IMG/VR virus record: IMGVR_UViG_2974588491_000001
Location: 314,380 to 378,379 of that record
DNA: 64,000 nt
Origin: a virus
Lineage: Duplodnaviria > Heunggongvirae > Uroviricota > Caudoviricetes
Reading direction: 5' to 3' (one strand)
Shown here: positions 3,812 through 22,569 of the stretch, piece after piece
How the letters are laid out: every line of letters starts with the position of its first letter
How positions within the stretch are numbered: position 1 is the first letter of the stretch
Made by a program: the position numbers and the translations under genes
Notes under the pieces: generated by a model
Told to the model about the DNA's origin: nothing
Database searches by the model: none
The model's input: the letters and a program-made list of their open reading frames with translations, nothing else

Positions 3812-4435
3812 GTGAGTGATTTAATAAACAGACACAATATTGTTGACCGATTTTTTAACAGTACTTCATTATTATCATTAAGTAAAGAAAGTACTGAAGA
3901 TGTTATGATTTTCGAAGTACCTGAGTTTTTAGAAATACGAAGATACCCTAAAGAAAACCGATATGTATTTTCCATGTTAATTAAAGGTACATTTGAAGAA
4001 GAAGAATATGATCATAACTATAGCCATTTTAATCCAGCTTCAAGGGGTAGGATAATGGTTAAGAAAACTCGTTCTAACTTAGTTGAAGTAATGCGTTATA
4101 CTGATGGTAATTTTAAAATGGTCAGTACTTCATCTGATAGTAAATGGATCGAGTTTGCTCGAAGGGCTATAATGGTTCCTGGCGGTGGCCGTCAAGTAAA
4201 AGAAGAATTAGTCAGTACTTTAGATATGGAATATACTAAGCTTCCATTAACTGAAGAATATCATTTTCAAAGGATGACAACCAATGAAGGTTTAATTCTG
4301 GAGTTAGAGTACTGTTTGAAAGTACAACAAATTATTGAATTCATTGATAGCATTGGTAGTATTATTGCTGTTGATTCAAATAACAATTTAACAATACCTC
4401 TATTGTTCACGGAAAGATTAAGCGGGGATGCCTGA
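3812..4435 (+). CDS. hypothetical protein (GTG start); 3' end overlaps tRNA-Cys
   Basis: 207-aa ORF whose last codons overlap the tRNA acceptor stem. Confidence 0.45.
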   Translation: MSDLINRHNIVDRFFNSTSLLSLSKESTEDVMIFEVPEFLEIRRYPKENRYVFSMLIKGTFEEEEYDHNYSHFNPASRGRIMVKKTRSNLVEVMRYTDGNFKMVSTSSDSKWIEFARRAIMVPGGGRQVKEELVSTLDMEYTKLPLTEEYHFQRMTTNEGLILELEYCLKVQQIIEFIDSIGSIIAVDSNNNLTIPLLFTERLSGDA

Positions 4436-4499
4436 GTTGGCTTAAAGGAGCGGATTGCAAATCCGATGTTCGTGGGTTCGAATCCCACTCCCTGCTCCA
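4422..4499 (+). tRNA. tRNA-Cys (anticodon GCA), CCA encoded
   Basis: cloverleaf with 7-bp acceptor stem (one G-U), anticodon arm GCGGA-UUGCAAA-UCCGA identical to the E. coli tRNA-Cys arm, T-loop TTCGAAT. Confidence 0.8.
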
Positions 4500-4512
4500 A
4501 TTTTGATAAGGA

Positions 4513-4878
4513 ATGTATATGCACCATTTTAATAGTTTAAAAGAAATTGCTCAGTTCTTTGATAAGAACTACTATCACTTTCTCAGATATGAAGATCACA
4601 CCATTGAGTATAACGGTATTACATACCTAATGGAACTTGATGAAGACGCACCAGTACCGCTAGTTAAGATTGGGTACTTTGATGATGAAGGTGATTTGAA
4701 TCTTCTTCTATGTGTTGTGGACTTCGGTTTACTAATCAACACGGATATTACCGATGATGAGCGTCCAGACATTTACGAGTACTGTACTATTATTCGTGAT
4801 GAATTGTTTGATTTAAATCTTTACGATCTTGCTCGCTTCAACTTTGTTTTGGAACGTGCAAAAAAAGATATGGGTTAA
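4513..4878 (+). CDS. acidic hypothetical protein
   Basis: ORF directly after the tRNA. Confidence 0.55.
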   Translation: MYMHHFNSLKEIAQFFDKNYYHFLRYEDHTIEYNGITYLMELDEDAPVPLVKIGYFDDEGDLNLLLCVVDFGLLINTDITDDERPDIYEYCTIIRDELFDLNLYDLARFNFVLERAKKDMG

Positions 4879-4930
4879 ACTGGTGTGGTTTTATACAGTG
4901 CTTAAAGTACTGAAATAAAACCACAAAACA
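4877..4930 (+). other. long hairpin (10-bp stem gtggttttat/ataaaaccac, 19-nt loop)
   Basis: inverted repeat between genes; no T-run follows. Confidence 0.4.
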
Positions 4931-4989
4931 CCTTGACAGTGGCATCCTCTCATGGCAAAATATACGCATGTTGAATGAGAGGACGAGCT

Positions 4990-5178
4990 ATGATGATTAC
5001 TCAGGAACGATTAAACGAGATTGAGCAAGAACTCTTGAAAATTCAGCTTGAACTGAATGAGGCGATTGTAACTGACAACAATTCGAAACAGTTTGGTATT
5101 ACTTTGTTTCAACGTGATTCAGTCAATAGTATTAGTCGTGCTCGTCAACACATTGGTAAGCTCTCAGAATTGTTGTGA
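4990..5178 (+). CDS. small coiled-coil protein, paralog A (ERLNEIEQEL)
   Basis: GAGAGGA RBS; paralogous to the next gene. Confidence 0.5.
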   Translation: MMITQERLNEIEQELLKIQLELNEAIVTDNNSKQFGITLFQRDSVNSISRARQHIGKLSELL

Positions 5179-5185
5179 GGATTAT

Positions 5186-5383
5186 ATGTCAAAAATAACA
5201 CCGGAACGGTTGAATGAACTCGAACAGCAGTTGATGCAAATTCAACATGAATTGCAAACCGTTGTTAGCCCTGTCAATTCAGATAATAATGTATTACTGA
5301 AGTACGCACAGGATCAGGCTGTTGGTCATGCACATAATACTCGTGTATGGGTAGAAGTACTGAAAGGTTATTTGGTCAGTTAG
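5186..5383 (+). CDS. small coiled-coil protein, paralog B (ERLNELEQQL)
   Basis: GAGGA RBS; stop codon abuts tRNA-Met. Confidence 0.5.
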   Translation: MSKITPERLNELEQQLMQIQHELQTVVSPVNSDNNVLLKYAQDQAVGHAHNTRVWVEVLKGYLVS

Positions 5384-5449
5384 TTCAGTTGGTAGAACGC
5401 TGCACTCATAATGCAGAAGTCACTGGATCGTAGCCAGTACTGACCACCA
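5374..5449 (+). tRNA. tRNA with CAU anticodon (Met or Ile-lysidine), CCA encoded
   Basis: perfect 7-bp acceptor stem GGTCAGT/ACTGACC, D-arm gttc/gaac, anticodon loop CUCAUAA; atypical T-loop. Confidence 0.7.
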
Positions 5450-5467
5450 ATTTGACGGAGTGATTAT

Positions 5468-5689
5468 ATGTTTAAAAGTTTATTTTGCAAACATCAATAT
5501 CATATCAATCTAATTTCTGTTAAAAACCACAAAAGTGCTTTTGATGCAGACATTAAGTACAAGATAACGTACAATGCAATATGCACTATATGCAACAAAG
5601 TAAAAATCAATTCATTTAATATCAAAAGTGATGAAGAATTGGTCAACTGTGCTCAATTATCTGACGAACATTTACACGGAGTTAATTAA
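5468..5689 (+). CDS. small Cys-rich protein
   Basis: 73-aa ORF. Confidence 0.45.
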   Translation: MFKSLFCKHQYHINLISVKNHKSAFDADIKYKITYNAICTICNKVKINSFNIKSDEELVNCAQLSDEHLHGVN

Positions 5690-5884
5690 ATGTCTGTATT
5701 CTTAGCAATACTGTTCATGATTATCTGTTGGGTAATTGGTTTACTTGTTTTTGCCAACTTTGGTATTGCTGCACCGCAGTACGGTTCGGATAAGTTTAAA
5801 CGCAATTATTACATAAAGTTTGTTTTGGGTTTGGTAGTACTGTTTATCGGGCTTCCTGGTCTTGGGTTTTATATTGCCCTGTAA
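5690..5884 (+). CDS. small membrane protein
   Basis: hydrophobic 64-aa ORF; TAAATG coupling. Confidence 0.45.
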   Translation: MSVFLAILFMIICWVIGLLVFANFGIAAPQYGSDKFKRNYYIKFVLGLVVLFIGLPGLGFYIAL

Positions 5885-5954
5885 TTAAATTAAAAAATAT
5901 AAAAATAAATGAAACGATAGAAAAAAATGTGGTATAATAATCACATAAAGGAAA

Positions 5955-6032
5955 TGCGGAGTAGAGCAGTCTGGTTAGCTTGCAAGGCTCATAACCTTGA
6001 GGTCGGTGGTTCAAATCCATCCTCCGCATCCA
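5955..6032 (+). tRNA. second tRNA with CAU anticodon (Met/fMet/Ile2), CCA encoded
   Basis: acceptor stem TGCGGAG/CTCCGCA, anticodon arm caagg-CUCAUAA-ccuug, T-loop TTCAAAT. Confidence 0.7.
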
Positions 6033-6098
6033 ATTATTGAGAATCAAGTAGTAGCAATCGACCACTGTATTAACGCAACTCGATGCTTGATTCGATTA

Positions 6099-6171
6099 GG
6101 GGCTATAGCTCAGTTGGGAGAGCGTCTGCCTTGCACGTAGAAGGTCAACGGTTCGAACCCGTTTAGCTCCA
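6099..6171 (+). tRNA. tRNA-Ala (anticodon UGC)
   Basis: near-identical to E. coli tRNA-Ala(UGC) (GGGGCUAUAGCUCAG...), retains the G3:U70 identity pair; 3' CCA not encoded. Confidence 0.85.
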
Positions 6172-6365
6172 CAAAGTACTATATACTTATCGTCTAAAGT
6201 TTAACTTGCATAACAGACAGCACTTGTTGTAATAGTTGAATAGGATACTGATTCGCTCGCAGGAGGTTTCGGGGATACAAGTGAAAGTCTTGTTGAGTAT
6301 ACCAATTTTAAGTAACACAAAAGTAAGTAACTAAGAAACTCAATCAAAAACCAATGAGGTATATC

Positions 6366-14394: not shown

Positions 14395-14777
14395 TGTTGG
14401 GTTCATTGGGATTGTTCTGGAGTGAAGAAGATGGTACTATGATTCTTTCTCCATGTGATGAATCATTCCAGGAACCTAAAGTGGCGTATTTTTACATTCA
14501 AGTTGAAACTGAATCGGAATATAAGCATATTCGCATAGACAAGTGGAATACTCCTGTGCGAACCAATGACCATTTCGAATGTACCCGCTTCGATACGTAT
14601 GAAGAAGCGTTGGAAGTAGTAAAGACATTTAACCTTGTCAGTACTTCTCATGTACATAAGATTCGTCTTGCTCGTGTAACTGGTACGTACATGTGGGATG
14701 ATATAGTGTACGCTCATTGCTCCTTGAAAAATCTAGGAAATGGTAAATTTGGCCTTGCAATCAGCGAACGCATGTGA
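14394..14777 (+). CDS. hypothetical protein
   Basis: TTAATG coupling. Confidence 0.5.
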   Translation: MLGSLGLFWSEEDGTMILSPCDESFQEPKVAYFYIQVETESEYKHIRIDKWNTPVRTNDHFECTRFDTYEEALEVVKTFNLVSTSHVHKIRLARVTGTYMWDDIVYAHCSLKNLGNGKFGLAISERM

Positions 14778-14834
14778 TATATTATTTTACATCGAGGGGA
14801 GATAACCTTCCCTCCCTATTAAGTGAGAATTCAA

Positions 14835-15026
14835 ATGACAGCATATGAAATGTGTATTGCGAACATTGCTCGTAAAGTCCGTTCTACCAACCATAACACC
14901 GCTGAAGGTGTACAAATGCCATCTGCATTTGAGTATTCAGTCGGTATTGCTGCTGGCTTTTGTAAAGATCCGAAAGAAGTTGTGATGGACATTTTCAACT
15001 TCAGCGAAGATAATCATAATTCCTGA
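14835..15026 (+). CDS. small hypothetical protein
   Basis: ATG 9 nt after the conserved TTAAGTGAGA motif. Confidence 0.4.
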   Translation: MTAYEMCIANIARKVRSTNHNTAEGVQMPSAFEYSVGIAAGFCKDPKEVVMDIFNFSEDNHNS

Positions 15027-15058
15027 AGGTACATTCTAGAGAAATTTAAAAAAAATCC

Positions 15059-15086
15059 TTGACAGTACTAAACAATGTGCTATACT
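15059..15086 (+). promoter_or_regulatory. sigma70-type promoter (TTGACA-16-TATACT) at the start of the 1.2-kb non-coding block
   Basis: hexamer match. Confidence 0.5.
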
Positions 15087-16099
15087 GATAAGGTTCAAGC
15101 GGAAAGACAAGTTTTAAAAATCTTCTCGCTAAAAAGTTTAAAAAAGTACTTGACAACCACTTCGTTAGATAGTACAATGTAGTCTCTGATAAGGAACAAA
15201 GTGTTCCGAAGCTGATAAAGAGTTCAGCGTGTTAAATCTAAAAAGAGGATTGAACGCAAATGTAACAGTTAAATATTAAATTTTATAATATTGATGACTA
15301 GGAACTTTTTTGATTTTTAAATCTGGGCGAATGGTTCCCCCGATAACCGGAAAACTTTGAGGATCGCAATCATGAAGTAATTAACACTAATTGAATCTGA
15401 TCATTTAAAATATTGCCGAGTTATTAGTGGTACGGGGCGGTGTCCAGGCAAAAAACGCCGCTACCTATTATCCACGAATGAATGACATTTTGCAAAGAAC
15501 GAGTACTGCGTAAAGAGTACAAGCTGAGAGGAAACCGATACTCTTGAAATTATCAGTTATCGGCAGAGAATCTATGAAGGCTGTTCTTGTCTGACTTCGC
15601 CGTAGAAAAGTAACGGTACAAGGGTTATGTGAGATGTGTGAATCTTGCTGTAATGATGGATAACGAGTTAAGGCGTTTGATGGCTTACAGTCGGGTGATC
15701 CGGTCACAAATTAGGAGTAGAAACACAACTAACTGATCATGGTTAGATGAAGCTAAGGCAGAGCTTTCTCGTAAGTATTTGGTACGGGTACGGTGAGATG
15801 CATACCGTGAGTGTTTCAAACATGTGCGAACTGTATAGCGTAGATACAGTAACTCTTTCGAGAGTTGTTTGATTAACCGCATATGTCGAACTTTCCGAAC
15901 AAAGTTCAAAACAGAATTGAAGTACTACGAAGTTGCGTGTTATAATCAGTTCGGTGAGGACTAACACGCAGCGATTTAATTACTGTACTGAATTGTATCA
16001 TTCACAGTTTCGAGTTTGTGATGCAATAAGGTGATAGTAATAAGTTCGAGCAAAACATAGGTTGTCTGAGCAGTGAAGCTGTTAACTTCATGATAAGCC

Positions 16100-16129
16100 T
16101 TGACAATTAGGGAATAGCCGACTATAATG
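16100..16129 (+). promoter_or_regulatory. sigma70-type promoter (TTGACA-18-TATAAT) upstream of the XRE gene
   Basis: hexamer match. Confidence 0.55.
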
Positions 16130-16251
16130 TGTTTATAGATTCCCCACTACCTGTAAATGGTTAGCCCAAGTGCAGTAAAGATGTTTCGGTACGGGAGTTC
16201 ACACAAAAAGGACTCCCACCTTTTAAGTTAGCTGATTAAGTGAGAATAATA

Positions 16252-16482
16252 ATGAAAAACGCACTCAAAACCCAATTGTTCAAAATGATTAAGAGCACTG
16301 CATCTGAACGCAATATGTCTCAGCGTGACCTGGGGAAAGCGTTGCAGGTTTCTCAACCACGTATTTCTAACCTTCTTGACGAGCGTCAAGATCTGTTCAG
16401 TATCGATAAACTGCTTGAATTCGTTGATACGTTAGGGTATCATGTAGAAATCAAAGCAGTGGAAAAGGAGACAGTACAATGA
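16252..16482 (+). CDS. XRE-family helix-turn-helix DNA-binding protein
   Basis: SQRDLGKALQVSQPRISNLL HTH; TTAAGTGAGA pre-start motif. Confidence 0.65.
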   Translation: MKNALKTQLFKMIKSTASERNMSQRDLGKALQVSQPRISNLLDERQDLFSIDKLLEFVDTLGYHVEIKAVEKETVQ

Positions 16483-16628
16483 AAGAATATATTGTAGAGT
16501 ACTTCCAGAAAGGCGGTTCTAACCCGTTAGCTACTCGCCAGTTCGCACATAACGAAGCAATGGCTCGTACTAATGCGAAGAACGAAAAAGGCCAGGATAT
16601 TATTATCCGCAGCGTAAAACCTGCATAA
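16479..16628 (+). CDS. small protein (49 aa)
   Basis: ATGA-coupled; host-like codons; terminator follows. Confidence 0.4.
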   Translation: MKEYIVEYFQKGGSNPLATRQFAHNEAMARTNAKNEKGQDIIIRSVKPA

Positions 16629-16654
16629 CAAAAGCCAGTTACCCCACATTCAGA

Positions 16655-16682
16655 AAAGCCAGCTTAGCTCTGGCTTTTTTTA
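16655..16682 (+). terminator. rho-independent terminator
   Basis: aaagccagc-ttagct-ctggcttt followed by a T-run. Confidence 0.65.
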
Positions 16683-16723
16683 TTGGATAATTTTAGTTGT
16701 TGCTATTTTGTACGGAGATAAAA

Positions 16724-17716
16724 GTGAGTCCAAAAAAATTAAACTTAGATGATATTCAGGAAGATATCCTTGACGAATGTTTTGAAAAAGAAGAATTAAC
16801 TTTAGAATCACTTGTGGTAGATGATTCTGACGAGGATACAACTTCTGATGCTGATGATGTACATCACGGTTTAACAATGGATCAGATTAAAACACAAATT
16901 AAAGCTGACCAGTACATTAGCAACGAAGATCTAGTACGAAAAGTACAATCCGGCGTAGATGTAGAAGAATCAAAGAAACTACTTGTTATGTTCAACAGTG
17001 GTTTAGTGTACAACGAAGCGAAAAATTGTACTTGTAATATTCCATTCCAGGATAAAGTACAATATGGTTTCGAAGGTTTAATGAAAGCTATCTATGGTTT
17101 CAATACAACTTTCCGTACAATGTTTAGTACTTATGCAACAACTACGATCCGTCAACATATGTATCGTAACGGCAATAACGATGTTCGTATGGTAGCTCTA
17201 CCTGAACATCTGTCGGTTAACAACATTCGTATACAATCTTTTATCGAACGTTATATGAATGATAATACTGGCTATCCAACTAATGAGCAAATTGCTGAAA
17301 GTACTGGAATTGATATTCGTTCAGTAAAACGTATCATGAACTATAACAGTAATACTTTTAGTATTGATACGCCAATGAACAAAGGCGACGAAGGTTCAGA
17401 ACAAACACTAAAAGATATTATCCCTGGTGAAAGTGCTGATTATGTGGTTGATGAACGTTGTGTTGCAAAAGACTTTGTAAGTACAATGGAAGAAATCATG
17501 AATGAACTTGAAGAACATGAACGTGTTCTACTTGGATTAGTTCACGGTTTAGATGGTTATCGTATCCATACGTTTGATGAAATTATTAACACTGGATACA
17601 TTGATGGTAAAGGAAAGTTCGTAACTTCTAAAGCTACACTATCTCGTCGTTACAATGATATGATGGATAAAGTACGTCGTATTGTTGAACGTAAACAAAT
17701 CAACTTTGATCTTTAA
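16724..17716 (+). CDS. sigma-70 family RNA polymerase sigma factor (phage-encoded)
   Basis: region 2 FSTYATTTIRQ (cf. RpoD FSTYATWWIRQ); region-4-like HTH near the C-terminus; GGAGA RBS then GTG. Confidence 0.8.
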   Translation: MSPKKLNLDDIQEDILDECFEKEELTLESLVVDDSDEDTTSDADDVHHGLTMDQIKTQIKADQYISNEDLVRKVQSGVDVEESKKLLVMFNSGLVYNEAKNCTCNIPFQDKVQYGFEGLMKAIYGFNTTFRTMFSTYATTTIRQHMYRNGNNDVRMVALPEHLSVNNIRIQSFIERYMNDNTGYPTNEQIAESTGIDIRSVKRIMNYNSNTFSIDTPMNKGDEGSEQTLKDIIPGESADYVVDERCVAKDFVSTMEEIMNELEEHERVLLGLVHGLDGYRIHTFDEIINTGYIDGKGKFVTSKATLSRRYNDMMDKVRRIVERKQINFDL

Positions 17717-21895: not shown

Positions 21896-22569
21896 TTAAA
21901 TGAAACCACGGATTTTTTTATGGTATAATCATATAGACAATCCTGCTTGATAGGGAGAGAAATCTTCCTAATGATTGAATCCCTACTTCGATGAAAATGT
22001 AATTGGAGAGTTGAGAAGTTCAGGCAGTTCGGAGAGCAAAAGAAACCCGTTAGGAGATGGCATAGTTTGTACCACCCACGGCAATGCGGCTCTATAAAGA
22101 AGTACATCTAATCGTTACCAGTACTTCCTCGATAGACATATAAGTGCAACCTTACCAAAAACGATAAGGGAGAATATGCACCAATTTTGTACAATATAGA
22201 TCCGTCCAAAATTTGTGAATCATATTCAAGTACTTTGTTTGATTGTATAGACAAGTATTAAGTGAGCTAAGACCTCGACCGTTGTTAGAACTGAAATAGG
22301 AAGAAACAGGACAACCCGCTTCCGTGCTGAAAAGTAATTTTCAATACAATTGCCGACGACTATCATCGTCAGTTTTCATCCTCCTGCGGGGGGATGAAAT
22401 TGCCTCTACAAATCTCGTCAGTAATAAATGTGTTGAACAGTACAACGATTGAATTTTAAATATGATTTTCTTGCAGCGAAGCGTAAGAAAATCCTTGACT
22501 TGCTTCAGCAAGGCGAGTACACTACTCGAATTGAAGCATAAACAAATCATAAAATATGAGGTACATCTG

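Follow-up and report, generated by a model that had tools for sequence, protein, structure and literature searches.

The DNA analysed here is a window of 64,000 nucleotides from a tailed phage, and the element in question is the block at 15027-16250, which shows 100% identity to Pectobacterium phage vB_PcaM_CBB (GenBank KU574722, record positions 329406-330629). The window corresponds to positions 314380-378379 of the CBB record and forms the right end of the genome of this 378-kb jumbo phage of the genus Mimasvirus, a member of the Rak2-like group. In KU574722 the block is unannotated and stands as a gap separating CBB_510 from CBB_511. An earlier note on this DNA had suggested that the block may encode one or more structured non-coding RNAs, or a regulatory region for the XRE regulator and sigma-factor genes that follow. 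Our analysis leaves little doubt that the block is the gene for a structured RNA, and we judge it probable, with clearly less confidence, that the folded product acts in trans. The ends of the RNA were placed from promoter geometry (5') and from the terminator (3'), and the parts of the locus are given below.

15043-15086, plus strand: promoter P1, TTGACA-16-TGnTATACT (11/12 consensus matches with a TG extension; -35 element at 15059), with an UP-like A-tract (A-tract repeat D1) upstream; the upstream half of a tandem pair
15134-15178, plus strand: promoter P2, AAAAAAGTAC-TTGACA-17-TACAAT (11/12; -35 element at 15150), the main conserved promoter of the RNA
15182-16224, plus strand: predicted structured non-coding RNA of large size; a start at P2 would give about 1,043 nt, a start at P1 about 1,130 nt
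15245-15268, plus strand: invariant 24-nt motif GAGGAUUGAACGCARAUGUAACAG
15495-15617, plus strand: central domain, with the helix AAGAAC/GUUCUU (15495-15500 with 15583-15588), internal hairpins and a hairpin at 15599-15617
15618-15714, plus strand: variable insertion region, 24 pairs, 87.9% paired
15715-15975, plus strand: 3' core domain, 11 helices, with the invariant loops AGCGUAG (15837-15843), UUCG, CCGAAC (15895-15900) and GUUCGG (15949-15954)
16100-16128, plus strand: promoter P3, TTGACA-17-TATAAT (12/12), embedded in a hairpin of the 3' accessory domain
16110-16188, plus strand: 3' accessory (peripheral) domain, with the helix GGGAA/UUCCC (16110-16114 with 16140-16144), inner hairpins and the conserved GUAAAGAUGUUUCGG; 15 pairs, 92.4% paired
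16193-16224, plus strand: terminator-like hairpin GGGAGU...ACUCCC (stem 16193-16198 with 16212-16217) followed by a U4 run, 27 nt upstream of the XRE start codon

A gap poor in open reading frames (ORFs) lies at the same syntenic site in GAP32, XbC2, Kaldavass, Serratia phage BF, six pEa_SNUABM Erwinia phages, Yersinia phages fHe-Yen9-03 and fHe-Yen9-04, and five metagenomic jumbo-phage contigs, and its DNA is conserved at about the level of the adjacent protein genes. After removal of duplicates the homologue set comprised 13 distinct sequences of about 8 lineages with 39-97% pairwise identity, which belong to phages of the genera Mimasvirus and Eneladusvirus or to metagenomic contigs about 355-371 kb long; the extra contigs were obtained by scanning IMG/VR and the JGI metagenomes with the sigma protein and the invariant 24-mer as queries. 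All 13 share one anatomy: an A-tract, a promoter of the form TTGACA-17-TAnnAT, a transcript start at G(U/A)CUCU, 567-1,241 nt without a conserved frame, and a GC hairpin. The RNA's own promoter and its 3' end signal are thus each present in 13/13 homologues, as judged by consensus match only. Small natural variants are those of L011 (567 nt) and Yen9-04 (657 nt), and a covariance model built on the 3' core detects a single copy of the RNA per genome.

The fold was predicted by RNAalifold on a sequence-only E-INS-i alignment, which gave 189 pairs in about 30 helices, and was compared with controls in which the pairing partners were slid by 1-3 columns or the columns were shuffled. Over the whole RNA 90.5% of the cells are canonical, against 38-43% after sliding, and 76 pairs show compensatory double changes, against 15-31 in the slid controls and at most 54 in the shuffles. 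The 3' core (A2/R1, 15715-15975) is the best-conserved part, with 65 pairs that are 95.1% paired; 34 of these are compensatory, whereas shuffles give 17.5 ± 2.5 (0/500 reach 34) and sliding gives 4-10, and its covariance-model hit scores 276.8 bits. Each domain is also supported separately in the domain-wise statistics. The hairpin GAACUUU-CCGAAC-AAAGUUC of CBB illustrates the pattern, as its stem becomes GGUCUUU...AAAGACC in XbC2, GAACAUC...GAUGUUC in BF and GAACAAU...AUUGUUC in Yen9-04. A default MAFFT alignment misplaced L011 and L009 in the central domain, so that only two helices were recovered there. The conservation of secondary structure that the earlier note had proposed to look for in related phages is therefore found, with compensatory pairs above the controls, and its idea of a structured non-coding RNA is backed by synteny, by the promoter and terminator architecture and by compensatory changes across the 13 homologues. 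Its wording of one or more RNAs holds as regards a structured RNA and fails as regards several small ones, the element being rather a single long RNA of several domains.

The strand is indicated by the wobble pairs. G·U accounts for 10.3% of the cells and A·C for 1.6%, and this asymmetry, together with the orientation of promoter and terminator, points to selection on the plus-strand RNA. Single-sequence thermodynamics is blind to the strand, since the minimum free energy of -266 kcal/mol has a modest z-score of -2.5 against shuffles and the two strands score nearly the same (-2.5 and -2.45). The same data bear on the proposal that the block acts at the DNA level only, as early promoters with operator sites whose transcript has a functionless fold. 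Three strong promoters in 1.2 kb would suit this proposal, as would the 24-bp motif outliving the RNA body in XaC1 and L027, but the compensatory substitutions and the G·U/A·C asymmetry mark single-stranded RNA and not duplex DNA, and the motif is non-palindromic and occurs once in the window; we regard this explanation as scarcely probable.

No sizeable ORF is present in 15027-16250, as the earlier note had observed; the longest on either strand is 79 aa and the plus-strand maximum is 41 aa. The same note had named, as the finding that would overturn its proposal, a protein gene in relatives that is disrupted here by frameshifts. Such a decayed gene would be consistent with the small hypothetical ORFs annotated in the gap of GAP32, BF, Kaldavass and some pEa phages, and with minus-strand stop-free stretches of up to 207 codons (L026). 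In the relatives, however, the ORFs are all short, lie at differing places and in differing frames, and give no family hits: 8-35 stops occur in all three plus-strand frames of every homologue, no conserved reading frame runs through the block across homologues, and the minus-strand open stretches shift frame and position even between the 97%-identical L013 and L026, such openness being expected from the C/A-rich complement. The block homologues gave no Pfam hits, and PHROG gave only marginal ones (E ~0.07, minus-strand stretches of XbC2, L026 and BF). A decayed protein gene is therefore hardly credible.

Composition sets the block apart less than the earlier note had stated. Its estimate of about 45% guanine plus cytosine (GC), distinct from the flanks, is too high: the measured value is 38.0%, where the window as a whole has 36.3% and the 1.2-kb flanks have 37.0-37.4%, which places the block at the 77th percentile among windows of the same size. 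Only a core at 15420-15990 is distinctive, with 42.2% GC (96th percentile) and a GC skew of +0.21. Strong promoters leading into a long untranslated transcript with positive GC skew are also what a replication origin or primer transcript would present, as in ColE1 RNA II or the T4 oriF/oriG R-loops. This is very improbable for the present block, where the promoter A-tracts are the only candidates for an AT-rich unwinding element, iterons and tandem repeats are absent, the cumulative GC skew has no inflection at this position, and the selected RNA pairing, G·U included, over about 30 helices goes far beyond the needs of a primer.

Three domains, the 5', the central and the 3' core, make up the RNA together with optional peripheral ones, and big lineage-specific insertions separate the conserved blocks. 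The 24-nt motif is identical in 12/13 homologues, with only the R position varying. Its GAGG can pair with the 5'-terminal UCUC; both strands are invariant and covariation is hence zero. The GCAAAUGUAACAG segment (15256-15268) takes part in a long-range helix with 15482-15493. The central helix reads AUGAAC/GUUCAU in most homologues, AAGAAC/GUUCUU in CBB and GUGAGC/GCUCAU in L009, and directly after the central helix GUCUGACUUC (15589-15598) pairs with GAAGUACUAC (15919-15928) in a long-range helix that closes the large 3' core. The variable insertion region, which is short in CBB, extends over a far greater length in GAP32 and XbC2. The accessory domain is limited to some lineages, with GGGAA/UUCCC in CBB corresponding to GAGCA/UGCUC in BF; one of the hairpins in this domain also serves as P3 in CBB-type phages.

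Two of the invariant loops of the 3' core, CCGAAC and GUUCGG, are perfectly complementary in 12/12 core-bearing sequences, and the sole variation in these 12 loop columns is a matched double change in Yen9-04 (CCAAAC, GUUUGG). This suggests, on thin evidence, a kissing interaction between the loops, which may be intramolecular or intermolecular.

The 24-nt motif has a history of its own. Xanthomonas phage XaC1 (L032:2950-3170) and a 349-kb metagenomic contig (L027:330-700) carry a reduced locus with a promoter and the near-unchanged motif GAGGATTGAACGCAGATGTAAC, exact in L027 and 23/24 in XaC1, and in both the large RNA body is absent or much shortened. The motif at least may thus work independently of the large fold and have a function of its own. 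As an observation in itself, the motif resembles a start-stop element (GAGG, 11 nt, AUG UAA) and also contains a -35-like TTGAAC. Its use as a repeated operator or promoter was rejected in view of its single occurrence in the window. The divergent (middle-type) promoter of CBB has the form TGAAACG, 13 nt, TGnTATAAT (PMC5259590, supplementary Table S6), and the motif was rejected as a promoter of this type: it has TGAACG and lacks TGnTATAAT at the right spacing, and its conserved part falls where those promoters vary.

Some further repeats and recurrences were noted. The string GGTACGGG occurs three times exactly in the 64-kb window (0.41 expected), at 15429, 15781 and 16188, all within the RNA and at the 5' sides of hairpins; the three sites are not jointly kept in relatives. 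The long inverted repeats I5 and I7 are not conserved in the relatives, and no ToxI-like repeats were found in the block. A CsrA-type sponge was rejected because the GGA density is ordinary, at 11-19 per kb.

All three rightward sigma70-type promoters that the earlier note had placed at 15059, 15150 and 16100 were found there, with 11/12, 11/12 and 12/12 consensus matches. P2 is kept in 13/13 homologues. P1 has counterparts in XbC2 (L004:2464) and BF (L003:2850), lies about 90-115 bp upstream of P2 in CBB, XbC2 and BF, and the tandem P1/P2 arrangement is kept in three lineages. P3 is restricted to the type represented by CBB, L025, XbC2, Kaldavass, L012, L013 and L026, the homologous hairpin being present without a promoter in BF and pEa44; it presumably provides additional transcription of the XRE gene. 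The published promoter list of CBB contains 18 entries for the whole genome, and P1, P2 and P3, three of the strongest early promoters, are missing from its tables because that survey was confined to the 100 bp in front of each ORF (PMC5259590). The plus strand of the window carries 29 TTGACA/TATAAT sites with at least 11/12 matches and the minus strand 5, while shuffles give about 2 per strand; the 29 plus-strand sites against about 2 in shuffles fit the published description of CBB_390-546 as an early region transcribed by the host polymerase (PMC5259590). Many of the plus-strand promoter sites stand in the context AAAAGTAC(T)TTGACA.

At the 3' end, all 13 homologues carry a GC-rich hairpin whose sequence varies by lineage, followed by CUUUUAAUUKAG and the ribosome-binding site of the next gene; the signal of hairpin plus CUUUUAAU is likewise found in 13/13. 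The genes that follow in the window are listed here.

16252-16482, plus strand: XRE/HTH_37 regulator (CBB_511), the first gene 3' of the block
16479-16628, plus strand: 49-aa protein (CBB_512; MKEYIVEYF...), without a Pfam match
about 16650-16683: strong separate terminator between the 49-aa gene and the sigma gene
16724-17716, plus strand: sigma-70-family factor (CBB_513), the next gene after the 49-aa gene

The XRE and 49-aa genes (16252-16628) are reachable only through read-through of the RNA's terminator. The order of the RNA, the XRE or membrane protein, the 49-aa protein and the sigma factor is kept in all relatives, and the gene directly after the RNA varies by phage, being that of the XRE regulator, a membrane protein or the 49-aa protein. 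The 49-aa gene itself always lies upstream of the sigma gene and 3' of the RNA or XRE gene, in every relative including XaC1 and L027, and its product is a possible partner for either the RNA or the sigma factor.

This arrangement brings in the most direct competitor of a trans-acting RNA, namely a giant cis-acting leader or attenuator. In such a scheme the RNA would be a sensor in the 5' untranslated region of the XRE - 49-aa protein (- sigma) unit, gating passage past the 3' hairpin and timing the switch from host sigma to phage sigma. In all homologues a hairpin and U-run precede the next start codon by 27-40 nt, and the RNA is always linked to the 49-aa protein and sigma genes. BF, Yen9-04, L009 and L011 showed no promoter in the interval from the RNA to the genes that follow, so that read-through must express the next genes there. 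Against this, the element is 3-10 times the size of any known leader or riboswitch, and the immediate downstream gene differs among phages. All predicted folds, whether or not the upstream domain is included (minimum-free-energy folds of 3' segments of CBB and XbC2, P3-initiated or longer), retain the terminator hairpin, and no alternative antiterminator emerges from them; the stems of the hairpin drift freely in sequence, and no co-varying upstream partner was noticed. The strong separate terminator at about 16650-16683 divides the 49-aa gene from the sigma gene. On balance a leader of this kind is rather unlikely. Promoter-dependent antitermination, in which P3 transcripts lack GGGAAU, was considered and rejected: the AUUCCC of CBB is able to pair with GGGAAU or GGGAGU alike, this choice is not kept in XbC2, and folding gives no support. 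The switch of the XRE and sigma-factor programme envisaged by the earlier note is neither shown nor excluded; the dependence of the downstream genes on terminator read-through stands in several relatives, whereas no alternative antiterminator fold is predicted and the next gene is not conserved.

The Infernal/Rfam scan recommended by the earlier note places the block in no Rfam 15 family. At gathering level the whole window yields only four tRNAs, which lie elsewhere; at E<=10 the region 14700-16700 yields nothing relevant, at E<=1 six homologous loci yield nothing, and taken together the searches at gathering and relaxed thresholds over the window and ten related loci produce no match. The families covered include GOLLD, ROOL, OLE, HEARO, raiA, RNase P, tmRNA, 6S, group I/II introns, T-box and riboswitches. 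Short identities to 16S rRNA (GAUUGAACGC) are presumably due to chance, about 1.5 shared 10-mers being expected. The likeness of GAGGAUUGAAC to a strand of RNase P P4 is also taken to be chance, as the candidate partner GUUCAA lies in a hairpin strand and reads GACCAA in XbC2. The literature search found no published description of the RNA and no transcriptome of a Rak2-like phage.

Comparison with known systems gives partial likenesses only. The RNA is like GOLLD and ROOL in exceeding 500 nt, in its dozens of conserved helices and invariant loops, and in being phage-encoded with no known function; the pattern of insertions between conserved blocks is likewise that of RNase P, group I/II introns and GOLLD rather than of an mRNA leader. 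It gives no covariance-model match to GOLLD or ROOL even at E<=10, and it occurs in Enterobacterales jumbo phages, while those RNAs come from Lactobacillales, rumen and lake sequences. It has its own tandem sigma-70 promoters and heads an XRE / 49-aa / sigma cluster; whereas GOLLD and ROOL frequently adjoin tRNA genes, the nearest tRNA here (6099-6172) is about 9 kb upstream. GOLLD and ROOL RNAs are reported to form homo-oligomers (PMC12286853); here there are only complementary hairpin loops, which could mediate RNA-RNA contacts.

The promoter region recalls rrn operons with their P1-P2 tandem and UP elements, since two strong promoters about 90-115 bp apart with A-tracts precede an untranslated and highly folded product, and the 5' end G(U/A)CUCU(N)AA may be loosely boxA-like. 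Unlike rrn operons, the element is a phage early gene with no rRNA or tRNA homology and no established antitermination elements. It shares with riboswitch, T-box and attenuator leaders a structured RNA with a hairpin and U-run right upstream of an ORF start, and differs from them in size (0.6-1.2 kb against <0.3 kb), in the non-conserved downstream gene, in the absence of a predicted alternative pairing and in having no Rfam riboswitch or T-box match. With 6S and other RNA-polymerase-binding RNAs it has in common that it is non-coding, linked to a phage sigma gene and placed to influence the transition from sigma-70 to the phage sigma; its fold is multi-branched and not a rod with a central bubble, and the 6S model does not match. 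Any link of the RNA to RNA polymerase is speculation. The RNA is accordingly rated as a new class, being outside all the known families tested and having its own architecture, hosts and genomic setting.

In the mechanism that we propose for a trans-acting product, the host RNA polymerase would transcribe the RNA strongly in the first minutes of infection, because it lies in the early region behind tandem rrn-like consensus promoters with UP-like A-tracts. The G-rich, C-poor and tightly paired sequence would offer few Rho loading sites and may thereby escape Rho-dependent termination. The 3' hairpin with its four-U run would end, trim or stabilise most transcripts and so release a stable RNA. 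The folded RNA would itself be the product, a view based on the modular size variation, the invariant loops and the independence from the identity of the next gene; the RNA or an RNA-protein particle may bind or sequester a host or phage factor during takeover, and it may self-associate via the complementary CCGAAC and GUUCGG loops. Read-through of the weak terminator, together with P3 in CBB-type phages, would supply the XRE regulator and the 49-aa protein. The takeover of transcription is a natural but unproven arena for the action of the RNA, from its fixed place before the 49-aa and sigma genes.

Several points weigh against a trans-acting RNA of this kind. The transcription start site, 3' end, abundance and stability of the RNA are all inferred, and in CBB the U-tract is short (4 U) and the terminator scan, which calls the signal in XbC2 and BF, makes no call. 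No more than about 8 independent lineages enter the alignment, the long-range helices keep their sequence and show just 2 compensatory pairs, and the kissing loops are supported by one lineage (43/500 shuffles). In XaC1 and L027 the 24-nt motif has outlasted the RNA body. Where nothing recognisable as a promoter separates the RNA from the next genes, as in BF, Yen9-04, L009 and L011, the RNA is physically also a 5' leader, and a cis role fits equally well.

Very few structured bacterial or phage RNA classes longer than about 500 nt have been described. Wherever their function is known, it is that of a ribozyme or an RNA-protein machine (rRNA, RNase P, tmRNA and the self-splicing introns), while OLE, GOLLD, ROOL and raiA are still open problems. 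We tentatively put forward, at less than even confidence, that the present element is a giant ornate RNA class (0.6-1.2 kb, about 30 helices, invariant loops and candidate kissing loops) that is specific to a jumbo-phage clade and takes part in host takeover, either as a ribozyme or as an RNA or RNA-protein machine that assembles itself. The class would be directly testable, having clear promoters, culturable pairs (CBB/Pectobacterium, GAP32/Cronobacter and BF/Serratia), natural size variants and a fixed position before the sigma module. It also illustrates that the gaps in jumbo-phage annotation can conceal genes.

The distribution of the RNA was followed further. In the more distant Rak2-like phages Munch, 121Q and Hallingskeid the surroundings of the sigma genes were searched for it, with the 3'-core covariance model among the searches, and none was found. 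A 16-mer scan of IMG/VR returned 43 loci, among which only the already known contigs were real. Three motif hits in GTDB were rejected as chance matches; the one inspected was GC-rich and unlike the element, and the R1 model was silent in them. A blastn search against 5,426 E. coli genomes and 72,556 plasmids gave no match to the RNA locus.

The early region of the window holds a second candidate, at the position given here.

21896-22569 (core 22009-22431): second conserved element of about 430 nt in the early region, in the unannotated gap between CBB_523 and CBB_524

This element occurs in 62 Rak2-like phage records with 4-5 copies per genome; loci that hold it are also L030:4995-5520 (phage 121Q), L038, L039 and L040, and it is present in all Rak2-like genera searched, including those without the RNA at 15182-16224. 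Among only five sequences, 25 of its 73 predicted pairs are compensatory. It has no Rfam match, and its sequence is unrelated to that of the RNA at 15182-16224. It is probably another new structured RNA family, in this case a multi-copy one. If the jumbo-phage RNA class tentatively proposed above is real, the two together would mean that Rak2-like jumbo phages spend part of their early programme on large functional RNAs.

Two minor observations concern the surroundings. The tRNA cluster of the window (Cys, Met, Met, Ala) lies at 4422-6172, about 9 kb upstream of the RNA. The string TTAAGTGAGA is present in 10 exact and 15 one-mismatch copies in the window, against 7.3 expected, with 23/25 on the plus strand, at positions including 14819, 16236, 42118, 44152, 49094, 49516, 56926, 57794 and 58569; the two copies checked, at 14819 and 16236, lie 6-8 nt upstream of a start codon, and the string looks like a phage-specific ribosome-binding or processing motif of early genes.

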